DNA of 52,703 nucleotides. Source: a virus. Lineage: Duplodnaviria > Caudoviricetes. Shown one piece after another: positions 2 to 47,900 of this stretch (positions are counted from its first letter, which is position 1; the number at the start of each line of letters is the position of its first letter). The notes beneath the pieces are model-generated. The model did no database searches and was not told where the DNA came from. It worked only from the letters and a program-made list of their open reading frames with translations. The stretch lies in IMG/VR virus record IMGVR_UViG_3300031857_000265, positions 1-52,703 of that record; one strand, written 5' to 3'. The position numbers and the translations under genes were made by a program.

Positions 2-109
2 TACGTAGACAGGTGGAACGGACAGAACCTGCACGCCTCCGTCGCACCCCTCGAGGGGGCGGAGGCGAGGAAGGCCGAGGTCACCAAGGCCAAATGGAGG
101 AAGTCGTGA
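2..109 (+). CDS. 3' end of an upstream gene (partial, hypothetical)
   Basis: Frame 2 is open from the window edge (YVDRWNGQNLHASVAPLEGAEARKAEVTKAKWRKS*); its TGA at 107-109 overlaps the GTG at 106 (GTGA coupling). Confidence 0.55.
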   Translation, partial: YVDRWNGQNLHASVAPLEGAEARKAEVTKAKWRKS

Positions 110-3100
110 AGCCCGTCGACCGGCGCGACGACCGCACCGCCCTCACGAGGGAGCAGGCCGTCGCCGCGGCGAGGTCAACGGGCTGCGAGGGGGCGCACGA
201 GGTGGAGGGCGGCTGGATGCCGTGTTCGTCGCCCGAGGAACTCAGGCGTGTTTCCGCCTCAGCGGAGAGCGACTCGTGGCTTGAGTCGTCCGTGTCCGAC
301 AAGGGCGGGGTCTCGCCGTCGGGCAGGAGGCGCAAGAGGCGTGTCCGCCGATGGGAGAACCTGGTGGAGAGGTCCTACGGAATGACGGGCGTACCGGGTC
401 TGGGTGTCGTTTCCGCCCCTCCCGCCAAGCCGACGTCGCCGATGGGCGACTCCTACGCCTCGGGACCGTCCGGGGTCATCACGCTGACGGCCGAGGGCAA
501 GGCGTTCGCGCCTTTCACCCCAGAGGTCGGCGACCCCGACGTGTACACCTCCCCCGACGCGGCGAGGATGCGGGCTAGGCAGGTCGGCTGTACGGGGATC
601 AGGAGGTACACCACGCCGTCGGGAAGGCAGGCGTGGATGCCATGCACCACCGGTGTCACCTTCGACAGGAACATGGGATACGGGGCGTACTCTCGTACGG
701 GGAGCCGCCTCGAGTCGGCGAGGGTCGAGCGGGAGGTGCGCAGGCAACTGAGGGCCGCCGGGTTCAGCGGCAAGAAGTCCGCCAGAAGGCTCGCCGCTAC
801 GCCGGCGAAGCCCTCGGAGAGGATCTCGGGCTCCTCCGTCAACAAGCCCGGCTCGTCCGCCTCGGCGAGGAGCGCATCGGGGATCGTGCTCTCGGCGGAG
901 CAGCAGAAGGCACTCGTCGTCAAGGCGAGGGAGCACAACGCCAAGATGCGCGAGGCGGGCAAGCAGAAGTGGTCGAGGACGTCGTCCGCCACGCTCAAGG
1001 CAGTCATGAGGCGTGGCATGGGGGCGTTCAGCTCGTCCCACCGACCCGACGTCTCCTCCCGCCAGCAGTGGGGAATGGGCAGGGTGAACGCGTTCTTGGT
1101 GATGCTCGAGACGGGCAGGCCGAAGAACCCGAGATACACGACGGACAACGACCTCCTGCCCAAGGGCCACCCCTGGAAAGAACGAACGGCCGGTGGTCAG
1201 TCCACCAAGAAGGAGCCGATCGACGCAGACAGGGACGGGTGGGTCGACGAGGGCAAGCCGACGAGGAGGTTCGTCGGTTTCAGCCTCCTCGGTCGCGCCG
1301 CTAGGTCGGGCGCGGCGAGGGCGAGGACGATGGACGTCGCCGGCTCCGGCGGTTCGAGGCGCGGCAAGAGGACCGTCCGCGTCTCGGCTGGGGGCGGCAT
1401 CGCCGGCAGGGCAAGGGCTAGGAGGTTGTCCAGAGAGATCGAGGGCACGGTGTCGCGCATCTCCGAGGGGAGGACGACGCGCCCCGACTTCAAGCCGAGC
1501 ATCACCGGGAACGTCCCGAAGAGGATCTCGTCCGACAGGCTGAGGAGGCTGAAGCCCCAACGCGTGAACCACAACTCGCTCGTCGCAACGCAGAGGGCCT
1601 ACCCGAAGGCTCCGATGCCCGAGGGCGAACACAGGGTCACCACGCTGAAGGAGCTCGGCACCGCCCCCGGGGGCGGCATCGGCAGCACGTTCGACCACTT
1701 CAAGATCGGCTCCGGGGAGATCCCCGCCGAGAGGAAGGCACTCCACGAGGAGATCATCCAGTCGATCCTGTTCGGCGGCGGCAAGTGGTCGCCGAAGAGG
1801 CAGGAGAAACCCGCCGTGTGGTTCATGGGCGGGGGGCCGGCCTCGGGGAAGACGTTCCTGAGGCAGGGCGGCTTCTTCGACACGCCATCCCGTGGCGAGG
1901 CGGTCCACCTCGACGCAGACGAGATCAAGCAGATGATCCCCGAGTTCGACTCGCTCGTCAAGGAACTCACGGACGCGGGCATGGACCCGACCGCCGCGGC
2001 GTCCGCCGTCCACTCCGAATCCACGTACATCCAGAGGCTTGCCATGGCCAGGGCCGCGGAGCAGGGCTTCCACATCGTCCTGGACAGCACGGGCGACGGT
2101 GGGCCGAAGAGCTTCCACTCCAAGATCGACGTCCTCAAGGCGGCCGGCTACAAGGTAAAGGGCAGGTTCGCAGACGTCTCGCTCGGGAAGGCGCTGTCGG
2201 ACGCGAAGACCAGGCAGAAGGAAACGGGGCGCGGAGTACCCGACGACGTCGTCATCGACACCCACATCGACGTGGCAAGGGCGGTGCTGTACGGACTGCA
2301 GTACGACATCTTCGACGACCTGGAGATAGTCAGCAACGAAAACCACTCGTCCCCAACGACCATGGCCGCGTTCAAGGACGGCGTGCTCGTTGTCCACGAC
2401 CCCAAGAAGTGGTCAGAGTTCATCAGCAAGGCCAAACTCGCCTTCACCAATGACTACGAGAGCGACTACTTCGGTGGGGCGGACAGGGGCGCACGGGGCC
2501 GGTCGCCTCGCTCCAAGCCGAGGAAGACGAGGGTAAGTGGTGTCGACGGGGCGGACATGCTCGTCGCCGAGCCGGTTGAGTCTCTTGCTGACGCCCTCCC
2601 GAAGACGGGCATTGACTACCGCAAGGTGAAGGCAGTACCGGCGGAGAAAAGGGCCGCGATCGCGAAGGCCTACAATGGCCTGCCCGACAGGTCGCCGGAG
2701 GCGAAGGCCGCCTACGACGCCCTCGAGGCCGAGATCAGGGAGCAGTTCCGCATGTTGACCGATGACCTCGGGGTGGAGGTCCAGTTTGTCGACGAGGACC
2801 CGTATGCCGACGCCGTGGAGATGATGGACGACGTGGAGAACAACGGTGTCCTGAAGGTGCTGAAGAGTTCTGCGACCGGTGGCCACCCGTATTGGTCGGA
2901 CGAGACCAACGACATGTTCCGCGCCGTCCACGACGCCTTTGGGCATGCCGCCACGGGGCGCGGCTTTGACAGGCACGGCGAGGAGGCGGCCTACCAGGCC
3001 CACCGCTCCATGGTCAAGGACGCCCTGGCGCGTCTCGCCCTCGCCACGGAGACGAGGGGGCAGAACTCATGGCTCATCGAGAACGGTGAGTTCCCCGAGC

Positions 3101-3561
3101 AGAAGATGGCACTCCTCGACGAGGAACTCGCCAAGCAGGCCGGCGGTCTGCCGCAGATGCCGATGATGGCGGCCGTCCCCGACGTCGACCCCCAGCAAGA
3201 GGCCCAGTACGACGTCCCCGCAACGGCCGACCAAGACAACGCCTTCGAGAGCACGAGGTGCCACCACGTGTCCGGCGGCAGGAGGGTCGCAGCCACCGAT
3301 GCGGAGACCGACAGGTCGTCGCTCTACTCGTCGCTCGGCGAGGACGTCAGACTGTCCCCCGAGTCGAGGCAGAGGCTGTACGAGTTCGCCGCCCGCGGGG
3401 GTCAGACCCTCGAGGGGTCGGGCTTCGACGAATCCAACCCCAAGATCGCCGCGTACTTCAAGAGGGCGAAGAAATCGGTCAAGAAGATCGGCAAGGGCAT
3501 CGTGGCGGACATCCCGACCTCGGCGGTCGAGTCGGTCCCCGACACCATCGGTGCGGGATAG
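106..3561 (+). CDS. Large multi-domain protein (~1151 aa) with a zeta-toxin-like P-loop kinase domain; probably head-associated
   Basis: GGAGG at 96-100 then GTG at 106, a better start than 13. Contains two GCxG...WMPC motifs, a helical LKAVMRRGMGAF..HRP..QQWGMGRVNAF domain, DADRDGWVDEG, Walker A MGGGPASGKT with HLDADEIK, IVLDSTG and RQKETGRGVP (zeta-like), and an NDMFRAVHDAFGH..GEEAAY domain. Lies directly upstream of the capsid gene. Confidence 0.75.
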   Translation: MKPVDRRDDRTALTREQAVAAARSTGCEGAHEVEGGWMPCSSPEELRRVSASAESDSWLESSVSDKGGVSPSGRRRKRRVRRWENLVERSYGMTGVPGLGVVSAPPAKPTSPMGDSYASGPSGVITLTAEGKAFAPFTPEVGDPDVYTSPDAARMRARQVGCTGIRRYTTPSGRQAWMPCTTGVTFDRNMGYGAYSRTGSRLESARVEREVRRQLRAAGFSGKKSARRLAATPAKPSERISGSSVNKPGSSASARSASGIVLSAEQQKALVVKAREHNAKMREAGKQKWSRTSSATLKAVMRRGMGAFSSSHRPDVSSRQQWGMGRVNAFLVMLETGRPKNPRYTTDNDLLPKGHPWKERTAGGQSTKKEPIDADRDGWVDEGKPTRRFVGFSLLGRAARSGAARARTMDVAGSGGSRRGKRTVRVSAGGGIAGRARARRLSREIEGTVSRISEGRTTRPDFKPSITGNVPKRISSDRLRRLKPQRVNHNSLVATQRAYPKAPMPEGEHRVTTLKELGTAPGGGIGSTFDHFKIGSGEIPAERKALHEEIIQSILFGGGKWSPKRQEKPAVWFMGGGPASGKTFLRQGGFFDTPSRGEAVHLDADEIKQMIPEFDSLVKELTDAGMDPTAAASAVHSESTYIQRLAMARAAEQGFHIVLDSTGDGGPKSFHSKIDVLKAAGYKVKGRFADVSLGKALSDAKTRQKETGRGVPDDVVIDTHIDVARAVLYGLQYDIFDDLEIVSNENHSSPTTMAAFKDGVLVVHDPKKWSEFISKAKLAFTNDYESDYFGGADRGARGRSPRSKPRKTRVSGVDGADMLVAEPVESLADALPKTGIDYRKVKAVPAEKRAAIAKAYNGLPDRSPEAKAAYDALEAEIREQFRMLTDDLGVEVQFVDEDPYADAVEMMDDVENNGVLKVLKSSATGGHPYWSDETNDMFRAVHDAFGHAATGRGFDRHGEEAAYQAHRSMVKDALARLALATETRGQNSWLIENGEFPEQKMALLDEELAKQAGGLPQMPMMAAVPDVDPQQEAQYDVPATADQDNAFESTRCHHVSGGRRVAATDAETDRSSLYSSLGEDVRLSPESRQRLYEFAARGGQTLEGSGFDESNPKIAAYFKRAKKSVKKIGKGIVADIPTSAVESVPDTIGAG

Positions 3562-5127: not shown

Positions 5128-5508
5128 CTACTGCTTCCTGCCGTTCGCTATCGCCATCGTGTCGCCGCAACCGCGGAGCAGCATGACGGCGTCCTCCGTG
5201 GTGTTGGACGGGTCGTCCTCCCACGCGTAGATGTCACCCGTCTCGGAGTCGACGCACTCCCACGCCAACAGAGCGGCGGGGCGTGTCGTCTGCGGGACGT
5301 CCGTGGCTATTGCCTCTGGGTCATCGCTCAACTTCTTCCACGGGACGCCGGACGCGACCATGATCGCCCCGACGACGCTGACCGTCCCCGTTGCCCTGTT
5401 CCTGACCGCCCCTCTGCAGAGACCCCTCGTCGCCACCTCCCGCGCCGCGACCATGAGGATCGCCGACGCACGGGAGGTGTTCAGTTCAGAGAACGGCACT
5501 TCGGTCAC
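5128..5508 (-). CDS. Hypothetical protein (126 aa; resembles small actinophage DUF6197-type proteins)
   Basis: Only the last 126 codons of track ORF 5128..6924 look protein-like (VTEVPFSELN...AAREVATRGLCRG...VSVVGAI...WEDDPSNTTEDAVMLLR); GTG at 5508 overlaps the RNR stop. Confidence 0.7.
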   Translation of the reverse strand: MTEVPFSELNTSRASAILMVAAREVATRGLCRGAVRNRATGTVSVVGAIMVASGVPWKKLSDDPEAIATDVPQTTRPAALLAWECVDSETGDIYAWEDDPSNTTEDAVMLLRGCGDTMAIANGRKQ

Positions 5509-7424
5509 TTGACGGGGCAGGCCCCAGTCGCGCAGTCGTCGAGGTCGATGGACATCAGCCCCGCCTCCTCGGAGAGGGCGACGGAGAAGTCGATCTTGGA
5601 GAAGAGCTTCTCGTACTGCTCCTTGCTGACCTCCTCGTACGGGGGGAGCGGGAAGTTGTGGTCGGCGTGCAGGAGGAAGGAGACGCTCTTGACGCTGTTG
5701 TCGTAGTTCTCCTTGAGCCACTCCTTGATGGCGGGTAGTTCCTCCTTGCGGTAGTAGACGGTGACGGAGACGGCGTTGTCGGCCCAGTCCGTCTGCATCC
5801 GCTTGACCCACTCGAGTTGCTCGACGGCCGTCATGTCGGCGGCGAGGACGGAACCCTCGGGCGACTGGCACGGGAACTCGACGACCCATCTGGTGTGGTC
5901 CTCGCGCCCGTCGAGCCCGACGTCGGGGACGACCTTGTAGCCGCGCTTGCGACACTTGTCCACGAGCGGATCGGCGGCGCCGAACCGCACCCTGCGGATG
6001 TAGTACTTGGCGAAGGCGGGGTGGATGCCGGGGGTGACGCCGGGCAGGAGCGAGAGTGTTCCCGACGGCTGGACCGTGGTCAGCCTCACGGACGGCGTGA
6101 TGCCGGTCTGCTCCGAGAACCACTCGTCGTACTGCCTCAGGGCGTCGTACGCCTCGGGGAGCCACGAGAGTTGCTCGGGGGTGCATTGGAGGACTCCGGT
6201 GACCGACTGCCCGAGCCTGCGGTTCTTGTGGACCATCTTGGTGGTCTTCTCGTACGGGTACTCCATGGAGGTGACCGCCTTCTGCACCTTGTACAGGAGG
6301 CGCGAGATCTCCAGCAGGTCGTCCTTGGAGTTGATGTTCGGGAGGAAGATGGTTGACAGGTTGCAGGACTCGCCGTCGGCGAGGCCGATCTCGGCGCACG
6401 GGTTGAAGCCGTCGATTGTCGGGTCGGGTCGGTTCTCGCCGAGCCTGCCGACCTTCCTGGCCAGACCCCTGTTGATGAGTCCGTACGGCTCCCCCGATCC
6501 GTCGTAGCCGCGCCACAACTCGGAGAGGATGTGGTCGTAGGAGTCGGCGTAGACGCTGTTGTTGCTGTTTGCCCTCCACGCCGGGACGGAGCCGCTGGAC
6601 CAGTTCTTGGCCCTGAGGAACAGGACGTCGTCGGGATCGCCAATGGCGATCTGGGCAGAACGGCGGGACGAGCCGGAGATGACGATCCTGCCGATGATGT
6701 TGCAGATGTCGAGGACGTCGACCGACCTGAGCTTCTTGCCCGCGCGGGCCTCCATGACCTTGCAGATGTCCGTGATCCCGTCGATGAGCGCGCCCGGGCC
6801 GGAGGCGGTGCCGCCGAAGGTCTTGAGGGGTGCGCCGAACTCCCTGACGAGGATCGTCGAGTAGGTGAACGACTTGCCGGTGTAGAAGTACGACTTCAGC
6901 ACGGAGTGGACGAGCTTGCGCCACCCCTGCCTGCTGTCGGGGACGATGATGTCGGCGTCGTTGGTGCGTTCGTGGGCGATGGACACCCCGGTCTTCACCT
7001 TGGGCATCTCGTGGATGCGGGAACGCTCCACGGAGTAGCCCACACCGCCACCGAGCATCAGGTAGTCGAACAGCAGCTCGAAGTCCTCAATCTTCTCCAT
7101 GTTGACGAAGTAGCAGTTGTTGAGGCTGGTCCCGTTGTACTTGTTGACGAGCGGTGTACCGAGTTGCCAGAGTGCGCGCCCGGAGAGCGAACACCTGAGG
7201 TTGAAGATGTGGTCGAAGAGCCTCTCGGCCTCGTCGTCGGTCAGGTTCGCACCGATCTGGATGGCCCCGTTGATACAGCGCTCAATCGTCTCGGGCCAGG
7301 TCTCCTTCCTCCCCTCGACGTCGCGCGCGTACGTGCGCAGGTAGACGATCTCGCCGAGGCCACTGAAGCCCCACGGTGCTTGACGGTTGGTGTAGGAGGA
7401 CACGAAGTCCTTGGAGAGTGCCAT
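5505..7424 (-). CDS. nrdJ: Class II (adenosylcobalamin-dependent) ribonucleotide reductase, monomeric RTPR-like
   Basis: RTYAR..ETWPE, SGRALWQLG, LNNC, GGGVG, RRSAQI, finger-loop NPCAEI, CNL, TTVQPSGTLSLL, C-terminal CATGACPVK; no small subunit nearby. Confidence 0.92.
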   Translation of the reverse strand: MALSKDFVSSYTNRQAPWGFSGLGEIVYLRTYARDVEGRKETWPETIERCINGAIQIGANLTDDEAERLFDHIFNLRCSLSGRALWQLGTPLVNKYNGTSLNNCYFVNMEKIEDFELLFDYLMLGGGVGYSVERSRIHEMPKVKTGVSIAHERTNDADIIVPDSRQGWRKLVHSVLKSYFYTGKSFTYSTILVREFGAPLKTFGGTASGPGALIDGITDICKVMEARAGKKLRSVDVLDICNIIGRIVISGSSRRSAQIAIGDPDDVLFLRAKNWSSGSVPAWRANSNNSVYADSYDHILSELWRGYDGSGEPYGLINRGLARKVGRLGENRPDPTIDGFNPCAEIGLADGESCNLSTIFLPNINSKDDLLEISRLLYKVQKAVTSMEYPYEKTTKMVHKNRRLGQSVTGVLQCTPEQLSWLPEAYDALRQYDEWFSEQTGITPSVRLTTVQPSGTLSLLPGVTPGIHPAFAKYYIRRVRFGAADPLVDKCRKRGYKVVPDVGLDGREDHTRWVVEFPCQSPEGSVLAADMTAVEQLEWVKRMQTDWADNAVSVTVYYRKEELPAIKEWLKENYDNSVKSVSFLLHADHNFPLPPYEEVSKEQYEKLFSKIDFSVALSEEAGLMSIDLDDCATGACPVK

Positions 7425-7470
7425 TGGCCTGCCATCCCTTGCTGTGTTGATTGTTGGTTTGCTTGTTTCG

Positions 7471-7794
7471 TCAGATAATGCCGAGTTCCTCGGCCTTGCT
7501 CTTCGGCATGTATGCCCCCGCCTTGGCGACGAGGACGCGGGTCTTCGTCATGGAGGAAAGGGCCACCTCCCGGTAGACGTCCCTCTCGACGCGGACCATC
7601 TGCTCCTCCGCGGTCTTCTCCGCCAAGGGGGCAAACTGTACACGGATGCTGGGCGGTGGAGGGGCGTCGGGTGAATGGCTCACGCAGTCGCCCGTCGGGT
7701 GGCCGCAGATGATGCACGGCTGCCTGTCGGCCCTCAGTATCGAGACGCCGTCAAGGATCGTTTCCGATGATCCGGAGCCGCTGGAGGAGAACAT
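7471..7794 (-). CDS. Hypothetical protein with CxxC-H-C motif
   Basis: CIICGHPTGDC; ATG at 7794 lies 7 nt below a TAAGTT -10 box, so it is preferred over the track start at 7887. Confidence 0.65.
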   Translation of the reverse strand: MFSSSGSGSSETILDGVSILRADRQPCIICGHPTGDCVSHSPDAPPPPSIRVQFAPLAEKTAEEQMVRVERDVYREVALSSMTKTRVLVAKAGAYMPKSKAEELGII

Positions 7795-7892
7795 GACACC
7801 GAACTTACCGCGGTCGCTCGCGCCATCGGAAACCGAAAAGTGGTAGTGTTCGCGACCGCTTTCGCGGCGGTGAATCATTGACGCCAAACGGC

Positions 7893-7920
7893 TTGCGAAC
7901 CTCCGCCCGGGTGCTATTGT
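7893..7920 (+). promoter_or_regulatory. Putative promoter of the methyltransferase operon
   Basis: TTGCGA-16 nt-TATTGT with TGn extension; SD GAGGT before ATG 7959. Confidence 0.55.
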
Positions 7921-7958
7921 CGGGGGGAGCAGTACCTACCTAACCACTGAGAGGTGAC

Positions 7959-9284
7959 ATGAACAGACCCAAGGTTCTTTCGCTCTTCAGCGGCGCCGGC
8001 GGACTAGATCTCGGGCTTGAGCGGGCCGGGATGGAAGTCGTCGCGCTGTGCGAGATCGACCCCAAGGCGAAGATGGTGCTGCGCAAGCACTGGCCACACA
8101 CCCACATCTATGACGACGTAAGAGAGGTAACCCGTGAACGACTCATCGCAGACGGCATCGCCCGCCCAGACATTGTGGCAGGAGGAAGTCCCTGTCAGGA
8201 CCTCTCCGTTGCCGGACGTCGTAAGGGACTTGATGGATCTCGCTCAGGGCTCTTCTGGGAGCAGTGCCGGATCTCCGACGAAATCGGGGCGGACATCCTC
8301 TGGGAGAACGTCCCCGGCGCCCTATCTAGTAACAACGGAGCCGACTTCGCTGCCGTGCTGTGGGGAATCACAGGAGCACTCGTCGAGCTGCCCCCTAAGC
8401 AGAAGTGGGCCAAGTCCGGCGTCCTGGTGGGACCAAAGCGGACAGCCATCTGGCGTGTTGCCGATGCCCAACGTTTCGGAGTTCCCCAACGACGGCGTCG
8501 TATCTACGTTGTCGGATGTTCTGGAACCGTGGCACGAGGGCTTGCGCCGCTACTGCTTGAGTGCGCGGGCGGCCAAGGGAATCATCAGGCGGGCCGAGAG
8601 GCGGGGACGAGAGCTCCCCGAACCGTTGCGGACGGCTCTGACGACTCTAGCGGCCCAGGAGCCGGACGAGGAATCACCGACGGAGGACTGACCGCCTGGG
8701 TCAAATCCAAGCGGGCATCGTCCAACACGGACGACGACACGTGGCGCGACCAGCCGGTCAGCCCGACCCTCAACGCGTTCGACAACTCCGGGGAATCGCG
8801 GGCGACCGTGCTCACCGTCCAGGAGGGGGTGCTCCCGTTCACCGAGAACAGGTTCGCCCAGTACGCCGAGGGAGTCGGGGCGTTGCGCGCCTCGGGAGGG
8901 ACGCTCGGCGGCGGGTCCGAGACATTGTTGATCGACAACGCAGGGGTTGCCGCCTGCCTGAGGAGCGGGGGCGACGGCGGTGTCCCATCCAGCAGGGGGG
9001 AGAACCTCGTCGTCCAGCAGGACCGGATCGCCGACACGATCGGCTTCTCGCACACCCAGGGTCTTGACCACCAAGCGTCGACCGAGGCCTTCCCGACGCT
9101 GAGGGCCGAGGGCGGCGGGCACGCCGTCATGTACGACACCAGGTCGACCGTCCTCTTCCAGCAGAACCAGCGGGACGAGGTCAGGATCATGCCGGGGTAC
9201 GCCGGCTCGCTCAACGCCGAGAACGGCATGCACAACACCAACTTTCTCGTGCAACCGCAAGAGGACGACGGTGCCGACATCTGA
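7959..9284 (+). CDS. C5-cytosine DNA methyltransferase, catalytic N-terminal part (motifs I-VIII) plus about 5 TRD-like modules
   Basis: LSLFSGAGGLDLG (I), CEID (II), DDVR (III), GGSPCQDLS (IV), WENVPG (VI), PQRRRRIYVVG (VIII); motifs IX/X are absent. Confidence 0.92.
   Translation: MNRPKVLSLFSGAGGLDLGLERAGMEVVALCEIDPKAKMVLRKHWPHTHIYDDVREVTRERLIADGIARPDIVAGGSPCQDLSVAGRRKGLDGSRSGLFWEQCRISDEIGADILWENVPGALSSNNGADFAAVLWGITGALVELPPKQKWAKSGVLVGPKRTAIWRVADAQRFGVPQRRRRIYVVGCSGTVARGLAPLLLECAGGQGNHQAGREAGTRAPRTVADGSDDSSGPGAGRGITDGGLTAWVKSKRASSNTDDDTWRDQPVSPTLNAFDNSGESRATVLTVQEGVLPFTENRFAQYAEGVGALRASGGTLGGGSETLLIDNAGVAACLRSGGDGGVPSSRGENLVVQQDRIADTIGFSHTQGLDHQASTEAFPTLRAEGGGHAVMYDTRSTVLFQQNQRDEVRIMPGYAGSLNAENGMHNTNFLVQPQEDDGADI
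8134..8691 (+). CDS. Nested alternative-frame methyltransferase subunit (M.EcoHK31I beta-like)
   Basis: 185 aa in the +1 frame inside the MTase gene; own SD (AGAGAGGT 8121-8128) before GTG 8134; C-terminal SEFPNDGVVSTLSDVLE..RYCLSARAAKGIIRRAERRGRELPEPLRTAL resembles alt-frame beta polypeptides (recalled, not searched). Confidence 0.75.
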   Translation: MNDSSQTASPAQTLWQEEVPVRTSPLPDVVRDLMDLAQGSSGSSAGSPTKSGRTSSGRTSPAPYLVTTEPTSLPCCGESQEHSSSCPLSRSGPSPASWWDQSGQPSGVLPMPNVSEFPNDGVVSTLSDVLEPWHEGLRRYCLSARAAKGIIRRAERRGRELPEPLRTALTTLAAQEPDEESPTED

Positions 9285-9891
9285 TGGGTACAACAACTGT
9301 TTCACACCGTGGCCGGACATGGGGCAGGCGATCCGCGTCTACGCAGACGACGGGCCTTCGCCGACCCTTTCCTCGCACCACGTACTCGTCCTGCATCGTG
9401 TGATCGTGGCCAGCGAAGAGAACGACCCGTCCCTCTTCAGGAGGCAGAACTTCGGTTCCTACGTGGAGAGCGAACACACACAGGCACTCCTCGCCCGCGA
9501 CTACAAGGAGGGGACCGACCTCGTCGTCCAGCCCGTTTGGTGGGACGGAGGGGAAACCGCCCCGACCCTGACCGCAAAGGGCTCCGACCAGAGGATGCCC
9601 GACAAGGGGCAGTTGTTCGCGGTGCTGCAGGCCGTGCCGATCCAGGACGGGCGGGAGATCGAGAAGAAGCAGAACGGCTTCGGCATAGGCGAGCCGGGCG
9701 ACCCGATGTACACGCTGGACACCACCGGCGCACAGGCGGTCGGTTACGTGCTGTGCTTCGACGGCAAGCGGAACGACGACTTCAGGATGTTCGAGGACTA
9801 CTACCCGACGCTGACGCAGATGATGGGTACGGGGGGCAACAATGTCCCCATGATCATCCACGACATCCCTGGCGACGGGGTGTCCCGATGA
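9271..9891 (+). CDS. Methyltransferase-associated protein made of about 5 TRD-like modules
   Basis: GAGGA SD then GTG overlapping the upstream stop; PSPTLSS, QALLARDYK, TAPTLTA, PMYTLDT, YPTLTQMMGTGGNNVP. Confidence 0.7.
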   Translation: MPTSDGYNNCFTPWPDMGQAIRVYADDGPSPTLSSHHVLVLHRVIVASEENDPSLFRRQNFGSYVESEHTQALLARDYKEGTDLVVQPVWWDGGETAPTLTAKGSDQRMPDKGQLFAVLQAVPIQDGREIEKKQNGFGIGEPGDPMYTLDTTGAQAVGYVLCFDGKRNDDFRMFEDYYPTLTQMMGTGGNNVPMIIHDIPGDGVSR

Positions 9892-10274
9892 CCAAATACG
9901 AAAGGGTGCCGCCAGAGGGCGATGACGACACGGTCGCCGCCCTGACGGTCTCCGACCTGGTGAAGGGACAGGGCAACAACCAGTCCATGATGTCCGGCTA
10001 CCTCCAGGTGTACGCACTCCCGCAGGCGTTCTCGGTCAGGGAGGATGCGAAGGCGAACAACTTCCACGCCACCCCGACGGACACCGCGCTGTGCGTGAAC
10101 GCCCTCAGGCCGTCACCGCAGTCGCACCACGCACAGATCTTCATCGTTCAGGCGGAAGTGCCGTGCCAAGTCGACGGCTCGCCCATCGCCTCCACGCTCA
10201 GGGGTTTCGGGCACGGCTGGCAGGGCCAGCACAACTCAACCAACGCAGTCGTACAGGATGCGGAGGAGGGGTGA
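9888..10274 (+). CDS. Methyltransferase-associated protein made of about 3 TRD-like modules (128 aa)
   Basis: ATGA overlap with the preceding stop; VAALTVSD..NNQS, ALCVNALRPSPQSHHAQ, IASTLRG. This is the C-terminal part of track ORF 9309..10274. Confidence 0.65.
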   Translation: MTKYERVPPEGDDDTVAALTVSDLVKGQGNNQSMMSGYLQVYALPQAFSVREDAKANNFHATPTDTALCVNALRPSPQSHHAQIFIVQAEVPCQVDGSPIASTLRGFGHGWQGQHNSTNAVVQDAEEG

Positions 10275-11443
10275 GCGACGTTTACGGCTACGACGAGTAC
10301 AACGACTCCATCGCCGAAGAACTACACCATTCCCTGAGGGCCGGCACGAGGCAGTCCGTCGGTGTCGTACACCCACTCCCGGATGGCGTCAAGTTATTCG
10401 AGCCGATGTCGATGCGCGAGGAGAACTGGGCCGAGAGCGAGGTCAAGAACGCCCTCAGGGCCGGTGCCTCGAAGTCGTCCCACGCCGTCGTCTGCGAGGC
10501 CGTGGAGTCGGAGGAGCCGCAGGCGATCGCCTTCACCACGGAGCAGACCCCCAAGTTCTCGCCCGACCTGGCGTTCACCCTCACGGGCGGTTCGCCGTCG
10601 GGCGGTGGCCAGCCACAGTCCGTCATGCAGCGCGTCCAGATGCTCAACTTCCAGGGGAGCAAGGGGAACACCGTCGTGTCGGACGACGGGCAGTCATTCA
10701 CCCTCAACGCTATGCACGGCCACGACGTCCACGTCATCGCCTACAACATCATGGGCGCACCGCCGAGGGAGCCAGACAGGCCCAACGGCGGCTACTACGT
10801 CAACGAGACGCAGGTGACCAAGACGCTCGACGCCTTCGGCGACGGTCTCAACCCGAGCGTCAACCAGGGCGGCCTCGCCATAGTGACCAGGTCGTGGCCT
10901 GTGTCTTTCAGGGGAAGGGACGGAGGAATGACCGCAGAACAGGGCGAGGAGGGGATCGCCAACACGATCAGGGCTGGGCAGGGCGGGAGCGTCCGCCCCC
11001 ATGTCCTGATCAGCGAAGGCCCCGTGGGCACGCTCACCACGGACATGGGTACGAAGATGCAGGTCAACAACCAGTCCGTCGACAGCAATCACCTCCAGGT
11101 CTTCGCGGAAATCGTGCAAGACCCGGCAGGAACGGGTACTATCGGCACGACGGCGGGGCTGCCCGCCATAGACATGATTGACAAAGAAGGGAATGACATG
11201 ACCGCAAACTCGAACGCACTGGTAGTGAGGCGCCTGACCCCGCTGGAATGTGAGTTGCTCATGGGATGGGAGCCGGGCTGGACCGAGGTCGGCATCACCG
11301 AGAAGGGCGAACTCGTCGAGATGGCCGACACGCATCGCTACAGGATGTGCGGCAACGGTGTCGTCTCCAATGTCGCCCACTGGATCGGGGCAAGGTATGT
11401 CGCGTCCAAGCAGGCCGCGGGTGAATCGGTCGGTTCGTGGTAG
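10271..11443 (+). CDS. C5 methyltransferase C-terminal part: about 7 TRD-like modules plus motifs IX-X (390 aa)
   Basis: GGAGGAGG SD and GTGA overlap; ends VVRRLTPLECELLMGWEPGWT (IX) and RYRMCGNGVVSNVAHWIG (X). Confidence 0.85.
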   Translation: MSDVYGYDEYNDSIAEELHHSLRAGTRQSVGVVHPLPDGVKLFEPMSMREENWAESEVKNALRAGASKSSHAVVCEAVESEEPQAIAFTTEQTPKFSPDLAFTLTGGSPSGGGQPQSVMQRVQMLNFQGSKGNTVVSDDGQSFTLNAMHGHDVHVIAYNIMGAPPREPDRPNGGYYVNETQVTKTLDAFGDGLNPSVNQGGLAIVTRSWPVSFRGRDGGMTAEQGEEGIANTIRAGQGGSVRPHVLISEGPVGTLTTDMGTKMQVNNQSVDSNHLQVFAEIVQDPAGTGTIGTTAGLPAIDMIDKEGNDMTANSNALVVRRLTPLECELLMGWEPGWTEVGITEKGELVEMADTHRYRMCGNGVVSNVAHWIGARYVASKQAAGESVGSW

Positions 11444-11649
11444 GCGAGGACGACATCGTCTCCCGGGCGGAGGCGAGGGTCAACCTGGTCCTGTGGGGAG
11501 ACCCGAAGGACTCCTTCTCGGCGAGGGAACTCCTGTTTGTCGTTGACCTACCCGCACTGATTGCGGAGGTGAAGAGGCTTCGCACGGCACTCGAGGAATC
11601 GTCTTCCGAGGTTGAGACCCTCAAGAGGTTCGCCTCTTACGGCGGTTAG
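11437..11649 (+). CDS. Small hypothetical protein with C-terminal coiled coil
   Basis: 70 aa, overlaps the MTase stop; DLPALIAEVKRLR is a common phage motif. Confidence 0.6.
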   Translation: MVGEDDIVSRAEARVNLVLWGDPKDSFSARELLFVVDLPALIAEVKRLRTALEESSSEVETLKRFASYGG

Positions 11650-13826
11650 CGGACGTCGAACCTGAGCCTGCAGCGGCAGTTGATCGTCAGGTGTGGCGGG
11701 GCCGTCGGGTCGCCGGGGAATCTCAGTTCGTACTGTCCGACCTTGAACGCGTTTGCCAACGGGATCCTGTCGCCCTCGAGGAGGCGGTGCTCGGAGCGGA
11801 CCTTCTGGTCCTTGCGCGTCACCCACCGCTTGCCGACCGCTCCCGCCTGCTTGCCGCCGAACCACATCCCGGCGTTGTAGGCGGTCTGTGCCTCGTGCTC
11901 GGCGATGACCCTCTTCCTCTTGGCGAGGAGGTGGGCGAAGATGGCGATGATTGCGGCCTTCAGGAGGACATGACCCTCGTCCTCGTTGTCCTTCATCATG
12001 GCGACCGCCGTGATGATCGCCGCGGCGATCTCGTCCTTGGTTGAGTCGTTGGACTTCTCCACGCGCGCCATCTGATCGTTGACGTACTGGTCGACCTCTT
12101 CCTCGTCCGGCTCCATGGGCATCCCGGTGCGCTCGTTGGCCGTCCTCATGGCGTCCTCAACGATGGACTTGATCAGCGGCCTGATGTCTTCCCTCATCTG
12201 CCTGTTCCACACCTCGGTGTCGAACACCTGATCAACGACCAGGGATTCCGATGCCATCGCCTTGCGGGCCTTGGCCCCGGTGGCCTTCTCGAGCACGACT
12301 CGCTGTTGCCTCTCGAAGAACCTCTCCAGGTTCCCGTCAAGGATCTCGGCCCACCTGTCGGCGTCCGCCAGCTCCTTCGTGTCCCAAGAGTCGGTCATTG
12401 AGTTAGCGGGGGATTGCTTGACCCCCCACTGGCCGACGCTCGCCGAGGCGGAGAGCTCGGTGTCCGGCCCTTCCCCTGCTTCGGGTGCTTGGATCATCTC
12501 CTCGGGTGTCTCGGCCGCCGCCCCCTCGGGTGTTGTCTGGTCGGCGACCGGTGCCCCGGGTGGCATCGCCCCCGGCATACCGCCCATCTGCTGGGGTGGC
12601 TCGAGCTTCTTTTCCGTGTTGCCGATGGGGGCGAGGTTGGGGTTCGCCAGCATTGAGTCGGCGAGTTCCGACTCGACCTTCTTGCGGCCCGTCCCGTCCC
12701 TGTACTCGTTGGCGGTGATCAGGCCCGACGAGAACTCCTGCATGAGGTAGCGCTCGCGCTCGTTCTTGGCAATCTGCAACACCGGCACGTTGGAAACGTC
12801 GAAGTCGAAGTATAGGTCGGGGTGCAGGGCGTCCATGCCGCGGGCGAGCATCTCGAGGTGTTGTGGCATCGTCTCAAGCCAGAACACGCGGGTCTCCTCC
12901 ACGGCGTTGGAGAACGTCCTGCCGGAGGCGTTGCCGATGACGGATTCGGGGACGCCGAAGGCGGAGAGGATCTCCTCCTTGGAGATCTGCCTCATCTCAA
13001 TGTAGGAGGCGTCCCTCGGCGAAGCACCCGTGTCCACGTAGTCCACCCCGTCGGACGAGGCGATGACTGATGTGCCGCCGGCCTTGCCGATGTTCCCCCT
13101 GAAGCGGGACCTCAGCTCGTCCTTGTCGTCCTCGTCCATGTCGCCCTTGACGACGAGGAGTCCGCCCGGGCGACCGTCGTTGACGAGGAAGTTCCTGTTG
13201 TAGAACTTGGCGAGCGACTCGAGTTCCACGGCGATGCCCGCCGCCTCGAGCGGGGTCATCGACAGGTACGGGTCGAGGGGGTGCGGGTGCTTGAACCACA
13301 GCACGTTCTCGGGCTCGACATACTGGATGGGCATGTTGGGGAGCCTGACCTCAAACCTCGAGACGAACTTTTTGGGGTCGGGGATGGGCGACGTGTACTG
13401 CGGCGGCAGGAGGTGGATGGCGACCGGGTCGCCTCCCCTACCTCTGATGATCTCGACGAAACCGCCGCGGGTTGACGTGAGGAGCTGTGCCGACAGCCTG
13501 TAGCGGAAGGCGAAGGAGTCCTCGCCGGCGTTGGCCCTCCTGTTCAGGATGTCCAGCACGGCGGCGTCCTTGACGACCTTCCCGTCGGGCTTGTTCCCTT
13601 CCCTGCCCATGATTGGCAGGCGGGCCTGGTTCCCGGCGATGGCGTCAATGCAACGGTACACCCAGGTGACCTTCTTGACCCCGTCCCGATACACCCTCTC
13701 GATGTCCCAGGAGTCGTGGTATCCCCTCACCATGTAGGTGGGGTTGGTCGACACCGGGGCGCCGGCCGGTATCGCCTTGGAGCCCTCGTTGGAGAGGGAC
13801 TTATTGCTCCCGGAGTTCCAAGCCAT
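11646..13826 (-). CDS. Portal protein (HK97-like) fused to a C-terminal MuF/gp7-like minor head domain
   Basis: VYRCIDAIAGNQARLP, GMTPL-like SMTPLEAA, RPGGLL, EILSAFGVPESVIG, ITANEYR; C-terminal KRWVTRKDQKVRSEH...FPGDP....INCRC. Confidence 0.9.
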   Translation of the reverse strand: MAWNSGSNKSLSNEGSKAIPAGAPVSTNPTYMVRGYHDSWDIERVYRDGVKKVTWVYRCIDAIAGNQARLPIMGREGNKPDGKVVKDAAVLDILNRRANAGEDSFAFRYRLSAQLLTSTRGGFVEIIRGRGGDPVAIHLLPPQYTSPIPDPKKFVSRFEVRLPNMPIQYVEPENVLWFKHPHPLDPYLSMTPLEAAGIAVELESLAKFYNRNFLVNDGRPGGLLVVKGDMDEDDKDELRSRFRGNIGKAGGTSVIASSDGVDYVDTGASPRDASYIEMRQISKEEILSAFGVPESVIGNASGRTFSNAVEETRVFWLETMPQHLEMLARGMDALHPDLYFDFDVSNVPVLQIAKNERERYLMQEFSSGLITANEYRDGTGRKKVESELADSMLANPNLAPIGNTEKKLEPPQQMGGMPGAMPPGAPVADQTTPEGAAAETPEEMIQAPEAGEGPDTELSASASVGQWGVKQSPANSMTDSWDTKELADADRWAEILDGNLERFFERQQRVVLEKATGAKARKAMASESLVVDQVFDTEVWNRQMREDIRPLIKSIVEDAMRTANERTGMPMEPDEEEVDQYVNDQMARVEKSNDSTKDEIAAAIITAVAMMKDNEDEGHVLLKAAIIAIFAHLLAKRKRVIAEHEAQTAYNAGMWFGGKQAGAVGKRWVTRKDQKVRSEHRLLEGDRIPLANAFKVGQYELRFPGDPTAPPHLTINCRCRLRFDVR

Positions 13827-44339: not shown

Positions 44340-44944
44340 GCGAGACGAGGATCGTCGTCGGGCAGGAGGTAAGCAACGTCTACATCTCCGCCGACACGAC
44401 CAACCTCGTCGAGGTCACCGATTCCTCGCAGAACCTCGTCGTCGTTTCCCAAGAGTTGCAGAACGTCATCAACGTCGTCACCCGGGGGATGCAGGGTCCG
44501 GCGGGCACGCAGATCATCGACGGGGAGGGTGCGCCGTCCAACTCGATCGGCAGGATCGGCGACTACTTCTTCGACAGACCGAACGGGAGGCTGTACGGCC
44601 CCAAGACGGCCCTCGGGTGGGGCAACACCTACATCCAACTGGCCGCGTACCTGGCCCTCAACGACCTCACGGACGTGCAGTCGGCCGGGGCGGCCGACCA
44701 GGACGTCCTCATGTACAGGGACGCGACCGACACGTGGGTCAACCAGCGGATAAGGTACAGGCACGAACAGCCCGTCCCGTCCGACGAGTGGACGGTGAAC
44801 CACGGTCTCAACACCAAGCCCGCCGCCGTGTCGGTGTTCGACACCTCCCAGGAGATGGTGTTCGGCGAGGTTGACCACGTGAACGAATCGCAGCTCATCC
44901 TCAGGTTCAGCGCGGCCTTCGCGGGGGTGGCGTACCTGACATGA
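44336..44944 (+). CDS. Virion structural protein (fibre-associated)
   Basis: [39 protein letters not shown]. Confidence 0.7.
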
Positions 44945-47900
44945 GCGTCAAGCACCTATCCCTCATCAACGCCTCAGGGCTGTCCGTCCACGGCGTCGAG
45001 ATCGACCCGTACGGCGCGACGACGGGGCAGATCCTCAGGTACAACGGGACGAAGTTCGTCCCGGCGCAGAGCATCGACGGGGTCGTCATCACGTCGGCGC
45101 ACGACGGGCAGATCCTCATCTACAACGGCACGAACTGGGTCAACGGCTCCTACCCGACGAACGAGCCGACCGGCCACGAGGACGCCACCCAGAGCACGCT
45201 CGACTTCGACACGGGCACGCGCATCTTCACCATCGCCCCAGCGTCGACCTCTCACGCCGTGTGGTGCAACGGCAAGCGGTACGTAAAGACGACGGCCGAG
45301 ACCGTCACCCTCCCGAACCAGTCGGATCTCTACTTCGTCTACTACAACTCGTCGGGATCGCTCGCCTACTCGACGACGTTCTTCGACCTCCAGACGCAGG
45401 CCCCGGTCGCCTACATCTACTGGAACTCCACGGACGGGGCCGACCACTTCTTCGCCGACGAGCGCCACGGCATCACCATGGACTGGGCGACGCACGAGTA
45501 CCTCCACAGGACCAGGGGGGCGGCGATCGCCGGCGGCTTCGGGGTCAACAACTACACGACCACGGGCAACGGCTCGCTGGACGCCCACGCCAAGATCGAC
45601 ATCGCTAACGGCGTCTTCTTCGACGAGGACAAGAAGATCGAGATCACCCACTCGGCCTCGCCGGTGTACCACTCGTTCCAGCAGGTGCTCCAAGGCGGGG
45701 CGGAGATACCGATCTTCTACCGCACCAACAGCCACTACAGGAGGGACGCCGCCACCAAGTTCCCGATGAAGCAGGGCACGGCGAGGGTCACCTACAACAA
45801 CTACAGCGGCGGGTTGTGGTCCACCCCAGACATCGACAACAACAAGTTCGGCGTCACCTTCGTCGTCGCCACGAACGACGTCCACGCCCCCGTGATCGGC
45901 ATGCTCGGCCAGGCCCAGTACACCGACCAGGGGTCGGCGGAGGCGGCGAGGTGGGAGGACATGGTCCTCGACGACTTCCCGGTCTACGAGTTCCGCCCCC
46001 TCTACAAGATCGTCTACCAGACGGCCAACGCCTACGCGAACACGCCCCACGCCAGGATCACCGCGGTCGTCGACATGCGTGTCGCCCTCACGCCCGGCGG
46101 CTCCGTCCCGGCGACCCCGGTGACAGACCACGGCTCCATGACCGGCCTGTCCGACGACGACCACACGCAGTACCTCACCGATGCGAGGCACGACGCCCTA
46201 GATCACAGCACCGCGCTCGGGTCCGCCGTCCTCGACGACCTCGGCGACGTGTCCGTCCCGTCCCCGTCGTCCATGGACGTCCTCCAGTGGAACGGCACGG
46301 CGTGGGTCGGTTCGCAGGTCGTCGGGCCACAAGGTGCACAGGGCACCCAGGGACCCCAGGGGCCACAGGGCGACACCGGCGCACAGGGCGCACAGGGAGC
46401 TGTGGGCGCACAGGGAACGACCGGACCGCAGGGCGCGCAAGGCGGGGCTGGACCCCAGGGCGCACAGGGTCCGGAGGGCTCGGCCGGCACTCAGGGACCG
46501 CAGGGCTCGCAGGGCGCGACGGGCAGCGAAGGCGCACAGGGCCCGACCGGACCACAGGGACCACAGGGGGACGTGGGGCCACAGGGGGTTCAGGGAGCGC
46601 AGGGTCCCACGGGTCCCCAAGGGTCGGTCGGACCCCAGGGGTCCCAAGGCGCCACCGGGCCACAGGGCGAACAGGGTGCGCAAGGTGTTCCCGGACCGCA
46701 GGGAGAACCTGGCCCCCAAGGAGCACAAGGCGCGACCGGCAGCACCGGCCCGCAGGGACCCCAGGGTTCGGAGGGTCCACAAGGACCGCAGGGCGACATC
46801 GGCGTGCAGGGTCCGCAGGGACCGCAGGGCGATACCGGCGCACAGGGTCCGCAGGGTGCGCAGGGCGCACAAGGGGCGACCGGGCCACAGGGGGTCGAGG
46901 GACCGCAGGGCGCCGAGGGCGCACAAGGACCGTCGGGTCCGCAGGGCGGTGCTGGCCCACAGGGGCCGCAGGGCGACGTCGGGCCCCAGGGACCGCATGG
47001 CTCGACTGGCGCACAGGGGGCGACGGGATCGCAGGGTGCCGAGGGACCGCAGGGTGCGGTGGGGCCACAGGGCGCCACGGGTCCCCAGGGTCCGCAAGGC
47101 TCGACCGGCCCGCAGGGTTCGGTCGGACCACAGGGCGAGGTCGGCCCGCAGGGCGCGACCGGACCGCAGGGGTCGGTCGGACCACAGGGTGACACGGGAC
47201 CGCAGGGGTCAACCGGACCGCAGGGTGCGACGGGAGCGCAGGGACCGCAGGGGGCCGCCGGCCAGTCCTCGAGCTTCTACAAGTACAAGGTGACGACGGG
47301 CTCGACGAGCGGCAACCCCGGCACGTCGTACATCTCGTACAACAACTCCTCGCAGACGTCGGCAACACAACTGCAGGTGAACCACATCGACCTCGACGGT
47401 TACGACATCGACCTGTTCCTCGGCGTCATCTCCACCGGCGATGTCGTCTACATCCAGGACGCCGGCAACTCGAACAACTATCAGAAGTTCATCGCAACGG
47501 GGACTGTTACCGACCACGGGAACTCGTGGGTCGACATCCCTGTGTCGCACGACTCCTCGGGCGGTAGCGGCCTCTCTGGATTCGCCAACGACCTCGGCGT
47601 TCTCCTCGTCATCGCCAACATCGGCCCGCAGGGTCCGCAGGGAGCCGCCGGGTCAAACGGCGCACAGGGCGCTACGGGGGCGCAAGGGGCGACGGGTGCC
47701 CAGGGTCCCCAAGGGGCCACCGGCGACACCGGACCCCAAGGTGCGGTCGGCCCGCAGGGTGCGGTCGGCCCGCAGGGATCACAGGGCGGGGACGGAGCAC
47801 AGGGGTCGACCGGCCCACAGGGCGCGACGGGGCCACAAGGGGCGGAAGGCCCACAGGGCGCGACGGGGTCACAAGGGGCGGAAGGCCCACAGGGCGATAC

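Follow-up and report, generated by a model that had tools for sequence, protein, structure and literature searches.

The 52.7-kb linear virus record IMGVR_UViG_3300031857_000265 of IMG/VR (52,703 nucleotides, here termed the window; estimated completeness 36%) harbors four overlapping plus-strand open reading frames (ORFs), designated O1 to O4, over which a predicted C5 DNA methyltransferase and a series of about twenty short modules are distributed (Table 1). The N-terminal core of the enzyme is encoded by O1, of which amino acids (aa) 5-187 match positions 2-161 of PF00145 (Pfam; e-value: 2.6e-36), and the C-terminal core by O4, where positions 258-320 of the same family match aa 302-374 (e-value: 1.5e-3; 18.5 bits, a score which alone lies below the 22-bit cut-off). 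A Pfam search of the whole record located concordant core matches at 7971-8519 and 11177-11392, and TIGR00675 is likewise concordant, with its positions 251-326 matching O4 (e-value: 2.3e-5). The N-core and C-core matches are separated by 2.65 kb. In an 89-sequence alignment of O1, P78-C79-Q80 of motif IV, E116-N117-V118 of motif VI and R178, R179 and R181 of motif VIII are invariant, with S8 and G12 of motif I and Q177 of motif VIII nearly so, and in an 83-sequence alignment of the motif IX-X region, the alignment positions R41, L43 and L51 of motif IX are invariant and G82 and N83 of motif X nearly invariant. Because the motifs which define the family are present, namely I, IV, VI and VIII on O1 and IX and X on O4, the locus is classed by its sequence as a C5 DNA methyltransferase. 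Solved C5 enzymes found by sequence search of the PDB match the N-core of O1 only, while tblastn comparison against a phage collection returned matches to the two cores only and megablast of the region against this collection gave no match.

Table 1. Positions of the methyltransferase ORFs, their junctions and units, the overprinted ORF and the flanking genes in the window (SD: Shine-Dalgarno; nt: nucleotides)
Feature	Position	Strand	Description
O1	7959-9284	+	441 aa, frame 0; catalytic N-terminal part (motifs I, IV, VI and VIII in aa 1-190), linker, units U01-U05
O2	9271-9891	+	206 aa, frame 1; chain of cassettes only, U06-U10
O3	9888-10274	+	128 aa, frame 0; chain of cassettes only, U11-U13
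O4	10271-11443	+	390 aa, frame 2; U14-U20, then motifs IX-X (aa about 300-375)
Junction 1	9271-9284	+	O2 GTG at 9271 overlaps the O1 end by 14 nt (stop TGA 9282-9284); +1 frame change
Junction 2	9888-9891	+	ATGA stop/start overlap of O2 and O3, within an inter-unit linker
Junction 3	10271-10274	+	GTGA stop/start overlap of O3 and O4; strong SD, GGAGGAGGGG, directly upstream
U01-U05	8688-9260	+	O1 aa 244-288, 289-326, 327-354, 355-393, 394-434
U06-U10		+	O2 aa 5-48, 49-88, 89-120, 121-159, 160-198
U11-U13		+	O3 aa 4-43, 44-88, 89-124
U14-U20		+	O4 aa 3-36, 37-76, 83-120, 121-158, 159-206, 207-247, 248-279
Overprinted ORF	8134-8691	+	185 codons, +1 frame relative to O1; conserved C-terminal domain of ~65 aa encoded at about 8494-8688
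Reductase ORF	5505-7424	-	class II ribonucleotide reductase (RNR)
138-aa ORF	7471-7887	-	directly upstream of the methylase; Cys/His cluster; conserved in the relative L001 (4187-4579); no Pfam match
Portal ORF	11646-13826	-	portal

The reading frame changes by +1, -1 and -1 at junctions 1, 2 and 3, respectively, and the codon phase with the highest G+C content moves from 2 to 0, back to 2 and then to 1 exactly at these three points. At junction 1 an SD-like GAGGA is located 5 nt upstream of the GTG at 9271. Independent sequence of this region is available, as words sampled from positions 7900-11500 are present to 73% or more in 19 public runs, and 20 runs, from 11 studies, contain some part of it (eight may be the source sample). 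Contigs of three runs from three studies, none of them flagged as the source (X9, X11 and X16), each span the three junctions free of gaps, and the differences listed for these contigs in 7959-11443 include no indel. Outside the overprinted ORF, 18/20 of the listed places with strain variants are third codon positions of the annotated frames, among them all 14 single-nucleotide polymorphisms (SNPs) in 9245-11095 and all six listed for O2. The ratios of nonsynonymous to synonymous substitution (dN/dS), computed with L001, a syntenic relative of about 78% nucleotide identity, as the reference, are 0.19 for the O1 core, 0.14 for the O1 units, 0.10 for O2, 0.08 for O3, 0.07 for the O4 units and 0.24 for the O4 core, with values of 0.06 and 0.07 for the neighboring reductase and portal genes. 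Other relatives show a low proportion of nonsynonymous differences (pN) and saturated synonymous differences (pS). Given the low dN/dS and the third-position SNPs, the four pieces are coding, each in its own frame, and are under purifying selection.

Four pieces are found in all five close relatives (L001, L002, L015, L016 and L018; 60-85% aa identity), and junctions 1 and 3 are common to all of them. In L001 and L002 the stop and start codons of junction 1 and the 16 nt before them, which include the SD-like run, are nucleotide-invariant, and junction 3 takes the form of ATGA at the same place. Junction 2 is kept in L015, L016 and L018 and is absent from L001 and L002, in which a 27-nt insertion instead breaks the frame between U12 and U13, the stop there again being overlapped by an ATG. 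In all, five distinct break points were seen; all lie between cassettes, and at each of them a start codon is located at the stop or overlaps with it, and the ends of the pieces are acidic, as expected where an SD is embedded in a coding tail. Three scans of viral contigs yielded 125 related loci, 118 of which have both cores; the two cores are encoded in one ORF at 69 of these and not at the remaining 49, or, after removal of duplicates (94 unique loci, the window included), at 60 and 34, respectively. Two loci with an in-frame stop (L025 and L026) and two ambiguous ones (L045 and L046) were not counted as support. Nineteen of the unique split loci consist of two overlapping ORFs in different frames and often break at the same cassette boundary; in most of them the downstream ORF has a start codon situated 1-35 nt ahead of the stop of the upstream ORF (89 nt is the extreme listed). 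A further relative with the methylase N-core, P0220 (908 aa), also shows Pfam matches to HNH_3 and to sigma-70 region 4 close to the C-terminus.

The existence of single-ORF relatives at 69/118 loci, as well as the correspondence of junction 2 to a 16-nt indel relative to L001, could be taken to mean that a once-continuous gene has been broken by frameshifts or assembly errors and is now non-functional. The concordance of independent contigs, dN/dS values of 0.07-0.14 in every piece, the position of SNPs at the third positions of each frame and the retention of the same breaks at 60-85% aa identity make this highly improbable. Pseudogene decay was rejected on the low dN/dS and the third-position SNPs, and the split is neither an assembly error nor the result of decay. 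Split inteins were also rejected, since no intein-sized insert was seen by inspection, without a search aimed at inteins. The pieces are furthermore collinear with the single-chain relatives, and this, with the frame changes of +1, -1 and -1, would suit ribosomal frameshifting or hopping at all three junctions, by which a single protein of ~1,160 aa would be made. However, no slippery heptamer or shared shift site was seen on reading the three junctions, the junction sequences differ among relatives while a start codon is retained beside each stop, the two-piece relatives vary in the P-site codon which precedes the stop, and an SD-like run is conserved at junctions 1 and 3 in L001 and L002, in which it was compared. 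Recoding is as such considered unlikely.

These observations bear on an earlier note, made from the sequence of this DNA alone, which had placed motifs I-VIII in 7959-9284 and motifs IX-X ~2.7 kb downstream in 10271-11443, had described every junction as a start/stop overlap with a clear SD at two of them, and had argued from the overlaps against random frameshift decay. Both family models agree with the placement of the motifs, the SD is good at junctions 1 and 3, and the argument against decay is borne out by the conserved breaks, the dN/dS of 0.07-0.14 and the third-position SNPs, while the independent contigs which bridge all three junctions without gaps supply the confirmation that the note had looked for. 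It had also allowed that homologs with one continuous ORF might expose assembly errors; such homologs do exist, yet no assembly error is involved, and the split is not obligatory.

The target recognition domain (TRD) of a C5 enzyme is by definition located between motifs VIII and IX. At this locus that interval comprises 811 variable residues, which were divided by aa coordinates into 20 units of 28-48 aa, with five on O1, five on O2, three on O3 and seven on O4. These residues contain 13 exact TL dipeptides, whereas shuffled sequences contain 3.5 +/- 1.7 and none of 5,000 shuffles reaches 13, while [TSA]L occurs 23 times against 11.0 expected and a four-residue core pattern, picked after inspection, 16 times against 1.7 expected. 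Searched singly, each unit retrieves its own set of related loci, ranging by phmmer from three (U06, U16, U18 and U20) to 59 (U12), with 7-41 loci for each of U01-U05, and reaching 62 after one iteration (U10). Profile mapping showed that close relatives retain the order of the units and differ by gain and loss: U01-U05 follow one another in constant order in all five, apart from an insertion of U11 in L016. In a strain contig of X16, position 10522 is connected to 10630 by 11 differing letters, so that 96 nt are lost on balance and U16 is absent in frame. The U16 stretch is likewise lacking in L001. Distant single-chain enzymes (e.g. L019, L021 and P0165) contain the same units in other orders, and units also change chains, with U11 found on O3 here, on piece 1 in L016 and in the piece-2-type proteins P0096-98, and U18 on O4 here and in P0095 elsewhere. 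In short single-chain relatives no more than one to four units are recognized between motifs VIII and IX, some residues being unassigned, and U12 directly precedes motif IX. At the other extreme, single-chain relatives with a long variable region reach 892 aa in P0165, which carries PF00145 at both ends and in which seven units were placed by the 20 unit profiles built from the window. As each unit has its own distribution among the ~120 related viral loci and the units occur in any order and on any chain, they behave, judged by sequence comparison, like independent and shuffled cassettes in the region where C5 enzymes carry their TRDs. In one single-chain relative (L109:5335-6771, plus strand), a U15-type unit follows motif X at the C-terminal end, and cassettes may thus also occur outside the VIII-IX interval.

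Proteins consisting of cassettes only are not confined to this locus. When compared with 1.84 billion representatives, O2 matches 504 representative clusters at an e-value of 1e-3 or below, and these matches include stand-alone proteins of 90-206 aa without a Pfam family as well as single-chain enzymes up to 892 aa long in which PF00145 matches at either end; O2 itself has no Pfam, PHROG or NCBIfam family beyond one marginal PHROG match. For O3, 93 matches were found among proteins of 70-224 aa, of which 16 lack a Pfam domain and include 88-130 aa proteins made solely of units, the remainder being mostly 200-aa 'beta-type' pieces ending in motifs IX-X. Further cassette-only proteins are P0095-98, P0103 and P0106, and in piece-2-type proteins U06 comes first and is followed by differing units. 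The claim of the earlier note that two of the genes are made only of units accordingly holds, with stand-alone cassette-only proteins recurring in public data, and the comparison of unit number and order in related phages which it had proposed reveals units that are gained, lost, reordered and moved between chains. Its description of about 20 units with a TL/AL/SL core is correct as to the 20 units and the enrichment of TL, and needs qualification in that only 13/20 of the unit cores contain a literal TL and the similarity between units is weak.

The core of O1 shows unusually low synonymous divergence from L001 and the G+C phase favors another frame in 8439-8708, both of which are attributable to the +1-frame ORF overprinted on O1 at 8134-8691 (Table 1), preceded by GAGAGG 7-8 nt before its GTG start at 8134. 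The locus had been described in the earlier note as four coupled genes; the four ORFs are real, and this fifth coding frame had been overlooked. Across 93 unique loci, the stop-free run after motif VIII has a median length of 163 codons in the +1 frame versus 36 in the +2 frame, a difference in which the long +1 run holds also at 46-50% G+C, and the conserved motif is present in the +1 frame of 69/93 loci and in the +2 frame of 0/93. The +1 frame is open in all 90 aligned loci, with its upstream stop clustering at O1 residues 50-69 in 53 loci and at residues 100-109 in a further 20. Over O1 aa 196-225 in these 90 loci, the nucleotide entropy at the first, second and third O1 codon positions is 1.5-1.65, 0.8-1.0 and 0.8, respectively; the least conserved position is the first of O1, which is the third of the +1 frame, and the wobble therefore belongs to the +1 frame. 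Computed against four close relatives, pN and pS in 8494-8688 are 0.02-0.12 and 0.32-0.46 in the +1 frame and 0.16-0.23 and 0.05-0.13 in the O1 frame, while pS in the O1 frame is 0.22-0.24 for O1 aa 59-178 and 0.52-0.68 for aa 1-58. The C-terminal domain of the overprinted ORF is under purifying selection, and the O1 frame in the same stretch is not. This ~65-aa domain has 12 invariant columns in 63 sequences and a mean column identity of 52%, versus 32% in the methylase core.

A degenerate pattern for the domain retrieved 491 stretches in bacterial species genomes. Eighty of the bacterial loci were fetched and 74 contained the motif, which lies in the +1 frame of the C5 core in 73/74; the lone frame-0 locus (L173) contains masked N runs and is unreadable. 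The pattern is also matched by 129 phage records, including those of phage P1 dmt (overprinted ORF at NC_005856.1 66710-67201) and Burkholderia phage Bcep22 gp25, where the ORF is in the +1 frame and is unannotated. The C5-like N-terminal domain of P1 Dmt and Bcep22 gp25 belong to the same methyltransferase family as the enzyme described here, with its core motifs, a U07-like cassette and the overprinted ORF. Unlike the window's enzyme, both are single chains, and the note in the record of P1 Dmt gives this protein as a fusion with a Dam-type domain; one U07-like cassette was noticed in the stretches of P1 Dmt inspected by eye. The overprinted domain has no match in Pfam, PHROG, NCBIfam or the PDB, and P0243 likewise gave nothing significant in the PDB. 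In a protein atlas the domain groups with 'hypothetical protein' clusters which, by the few taxon records, are largely viral. That it represents a copy of motif IX was rejected, as its comparison by hhalign with the motif IX-X alignment gave a probability of 0.03 and two aligned columns. Aligned locally with Escherichia coli Dcm, the domain matches best in the part of Dcm that follows motif VIII, which is a non-significant lead only (e-value: 0.21 for the single sequence and 0.047 for a 16-row profile; probability about 1% or less).

A resemblance in gene layout exists with M.EcoHK31I, for which PMC2836561 describes a small chain encoded entirely in another frame inside the large-chain gene, in that a second selected ORF lies in another frame within a methyltransferase gene. 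The beta chain of EcoHK31I, as presented there, carries motif IX, whereas the overprinted domain lacks such similarity and O4 has a motif IX of its own. The comparative evidence strongly supports the overprinted ORF as an apparently unannotated overlapping gene in a well-known enzyme family. In the database proteins P0254 (227 aa) and P0256 (226 aa), methylase motifs I-IV continue in frame into the sequence that elsewhere is the +1-frame ORF; this may be one more form of natural splitting or fusion, or may reflect an error of 1 nt. P0246 (304 aa) has an overprinted-type domain at its C-terminus and HNH endonuclease Pfam domains in the same protein, and the domain may as such also exist outside an overlapping context.

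Two kinds of C5 enzyme described previously resemble the four-piece methyltransferase. In Bacillus phage C5 enzymes, tandem TRDs protect against many restriction-modification (R-M) systems, according to PMC12707154 and PMC8936443. By analogy with these enzymes (SPR, phi3T, rho11s, H2 and SPbeta type), the locus appears to combine one catalytic core with short tandem modules in the variable region, the likeness drawn here between the cassettes and the Bacillus phage TRDs being one of layout and position. The multispecific Bacillus phage enzymes carry a few TRDs and are single polypeptides, whereas here ~20 cassettes are distributed over four chains, two of which contain only cassettes. TRDs and core share one polypeptide in the multispecific type as defined, and independent contigs place them on four ORFs in three frames at this locus. 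The second kind is exemplified by M.AquI, a two-chain C5 enzyme split in the variable region, with motifs I-VIII on the larger chain and IX-X on the smaller; PMC3404938, from which this is drawn, also gives M.EcoHK31I as two-chain and records complementation between C5 fragments. The layout of M.AquI is matched by O1 and O4 and by the 19 two-piece relatives. M.AquI has two chains and one specificity, the type being defined by exactly two, whereas four chains occur here, the two extra ones without any conserved motif. A parallel in concept alone may be drawn with HsdS of the Type I R-M systems, where, as PMC12707154 has it, a free-standing protein of TRDs only gives specificity to a separate methylase; HsdS has an unrelated fold and serves an adenine methylase, and the comparison is an analogy with no homology claimed. 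In the open-access literature searched, no C5 enzyme with more than two chains, with TRD-only chains or with ~20 cassettes was found, nor an ORF overprinted in this family. Tandem TRDs and two-chain C5 enzymes are both known, and since neither the one-polypeptide nor the two-chain definition fits, the locus is a variant of the multispecific and split kinds and a member of neither as defined.

We suggest, with a probability of roughly 0.55, that the locus is a functional operon of a freshwater phage in which a C5 methyltransferase is made as four separate, translationally coupled polypeptides with ~20 TRD-like cassettes directed at many target sites. O1 would supply the catalytic part and the part binding S-adenosylmethionine (motifs I-VIII), and O4 would supply motifs IX-X, completing the fold as in the two-chain M.AquI. 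The cassettes would be the counterpart of the tandem target-recognizing domains in the multispecific Bacillus phage enzymes, with, most likely, one cassette at a time docking with the core on DNA and setting one target, and the cassette-only chains O2 and O3 would be recruited non-covalently, in trans. This mechanism is proposed because of the precedents of an M.AquI-like core and of Bacillus phage TRDs used singly. An enzyme of this kind would methylate many sites and shield the phage DNA from many restriction systems, and by analogy the phage probably disguises its DNA in this way from many host restriction enzymes. Cassettes would be gained, lost and shuffled by recombination, and the gene would tolerate being broken between cassettes wherever a start codon and an SD arise beside the stop.

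Several observations weigh against this proposal. The similarity between units is weak, with an hhalign probability of at least 50 in 7/190 profile pairs (the best being U11-U20 with 98, U09-U17 with 85 and U15-U19 with 70), other hidden Markov model cross-matches between units are limited to 8-12 residues around the core, and self-BLAST of the O1-O4 proteins gave weak matches only. As only a short core is shared and only seven pairs reach 50, a common origin of all 20 units is not demonstrated by their sequences. No unit matched the TRD of a solved C5 enzyme in the PDB sequence search, in which the O4 units gave nothing significant. AlphaFold2 returned a mean predicted local distance difference test score (pLDDT) of 48 for O3 alone (58-row alignment), and for the single-chain relative L073 (375 aa) a pLDDT above 90 in the core and below 50 in the variable region (184-305). 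At junction 2 the SD is weak only, and in L001 and L002 16 extra nt fuse the homologs of O2 and O3, which means that the separateness of O2 and O3 is not needed for function. Action of O2 and O3 in trans is something we infer by analogy only. Analogy likewise suggests that each cassette is an active TRD with a specificity of its own, and some could be inert; inactive 'pseudo' TRDs have been described in the Bacillus phage enzymes. A complex prediction for O1 aa 1-243, O4 aa 280-390 and O3 scored 0.00 and, having no controls, speaks neither for nor against binding.

Some of these observations lend weight to a rival scheme, in which O1 and O4 form an M.AquI-like methylase which uses one or a few cassettes, and most units, together with O2 and O3, serve in non-specific DNA binding, as a scaffold, or as decoys for restriction sites or enzymes. 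The units share a short core only, AlphaFold gives them no defined fold, and purifying selection shows that there is a function and not which one. Against this, the cassettes sit in the position of the TRD and the variable region of short relatives is filled by one to four recognized units, while free shuffling with retention fits autonomous recognition modules better than a scaffold. A core-only enzyme is on balance doubtful. A bolder extension of the multispecific four-chain enzyme, put forward tentatively, is that of modular holoenzymes, in which the split core of O1 and O4 would be combined in trans with the exchangeable TRD-only subunits O2 and O3, a C5 counterpart of HsdS, so that ~20 specificities would be served from one catalytic center. 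The overprinted protein, whose conservation extends over hundreds of phage and prophage enzymes, P1 Dmt among them, may then be a further subunit or a regulator.

If the cassettes are active TRDs, this would be the most multispecific DNA methyltransferase described and the first C5 enzyme with free-standing specificity chains. It would furthermore provide a natural toolkit of about 20 portable recognition modules, with many more family-wide, and would directly explain how phages that have a broad host range or are exposed to restriction use a single enzyme to evade many R-M systems. In viral metagenomes, C5 genes broken between cassettes are a common occurrence (49/118 loci), which annotation pipelines will wrongly label as hypothetical proteins or pseudogenes. 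The case for the overprinted ORF does not depend on the cassettes, and this ORF, being located inside the model phage P1, is open to direct bench tests.

The scan of 7400-11800 for promoters returned 0 promoter-like sites, and that for terminators four terminator-like sites versus 2.6 expected, which is uninformative. A metatranscriptome run (X20) yielded a single 221-nt contig on the start of O1 (7958-8178), with one difference; a share this small, which carried-over DNA might also account for, counts as no evidence of expression. The four methylase ORFs are situated on the plus strand between the reductase and portal ORFs, both of which are on the minus strand and were named by reading their sequences, without a family search. 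Capsid, terminase and tail-fiber genes are present in the window by Pfam comparison. At the start of the record, a 1,182-aa ORF (13-3561, plus strand) contains a Zeta_toxin kinase-like domain (PF06414; e-value: 4e-23) as well as DUF3721 and DUF5824 matches. Further downstream, a 1,509-aa ORF (44941-49470, plus strand) encodes eight collagen triple-helix repeat stretches and a phage tail collar domain, and is probably a tail fiber.

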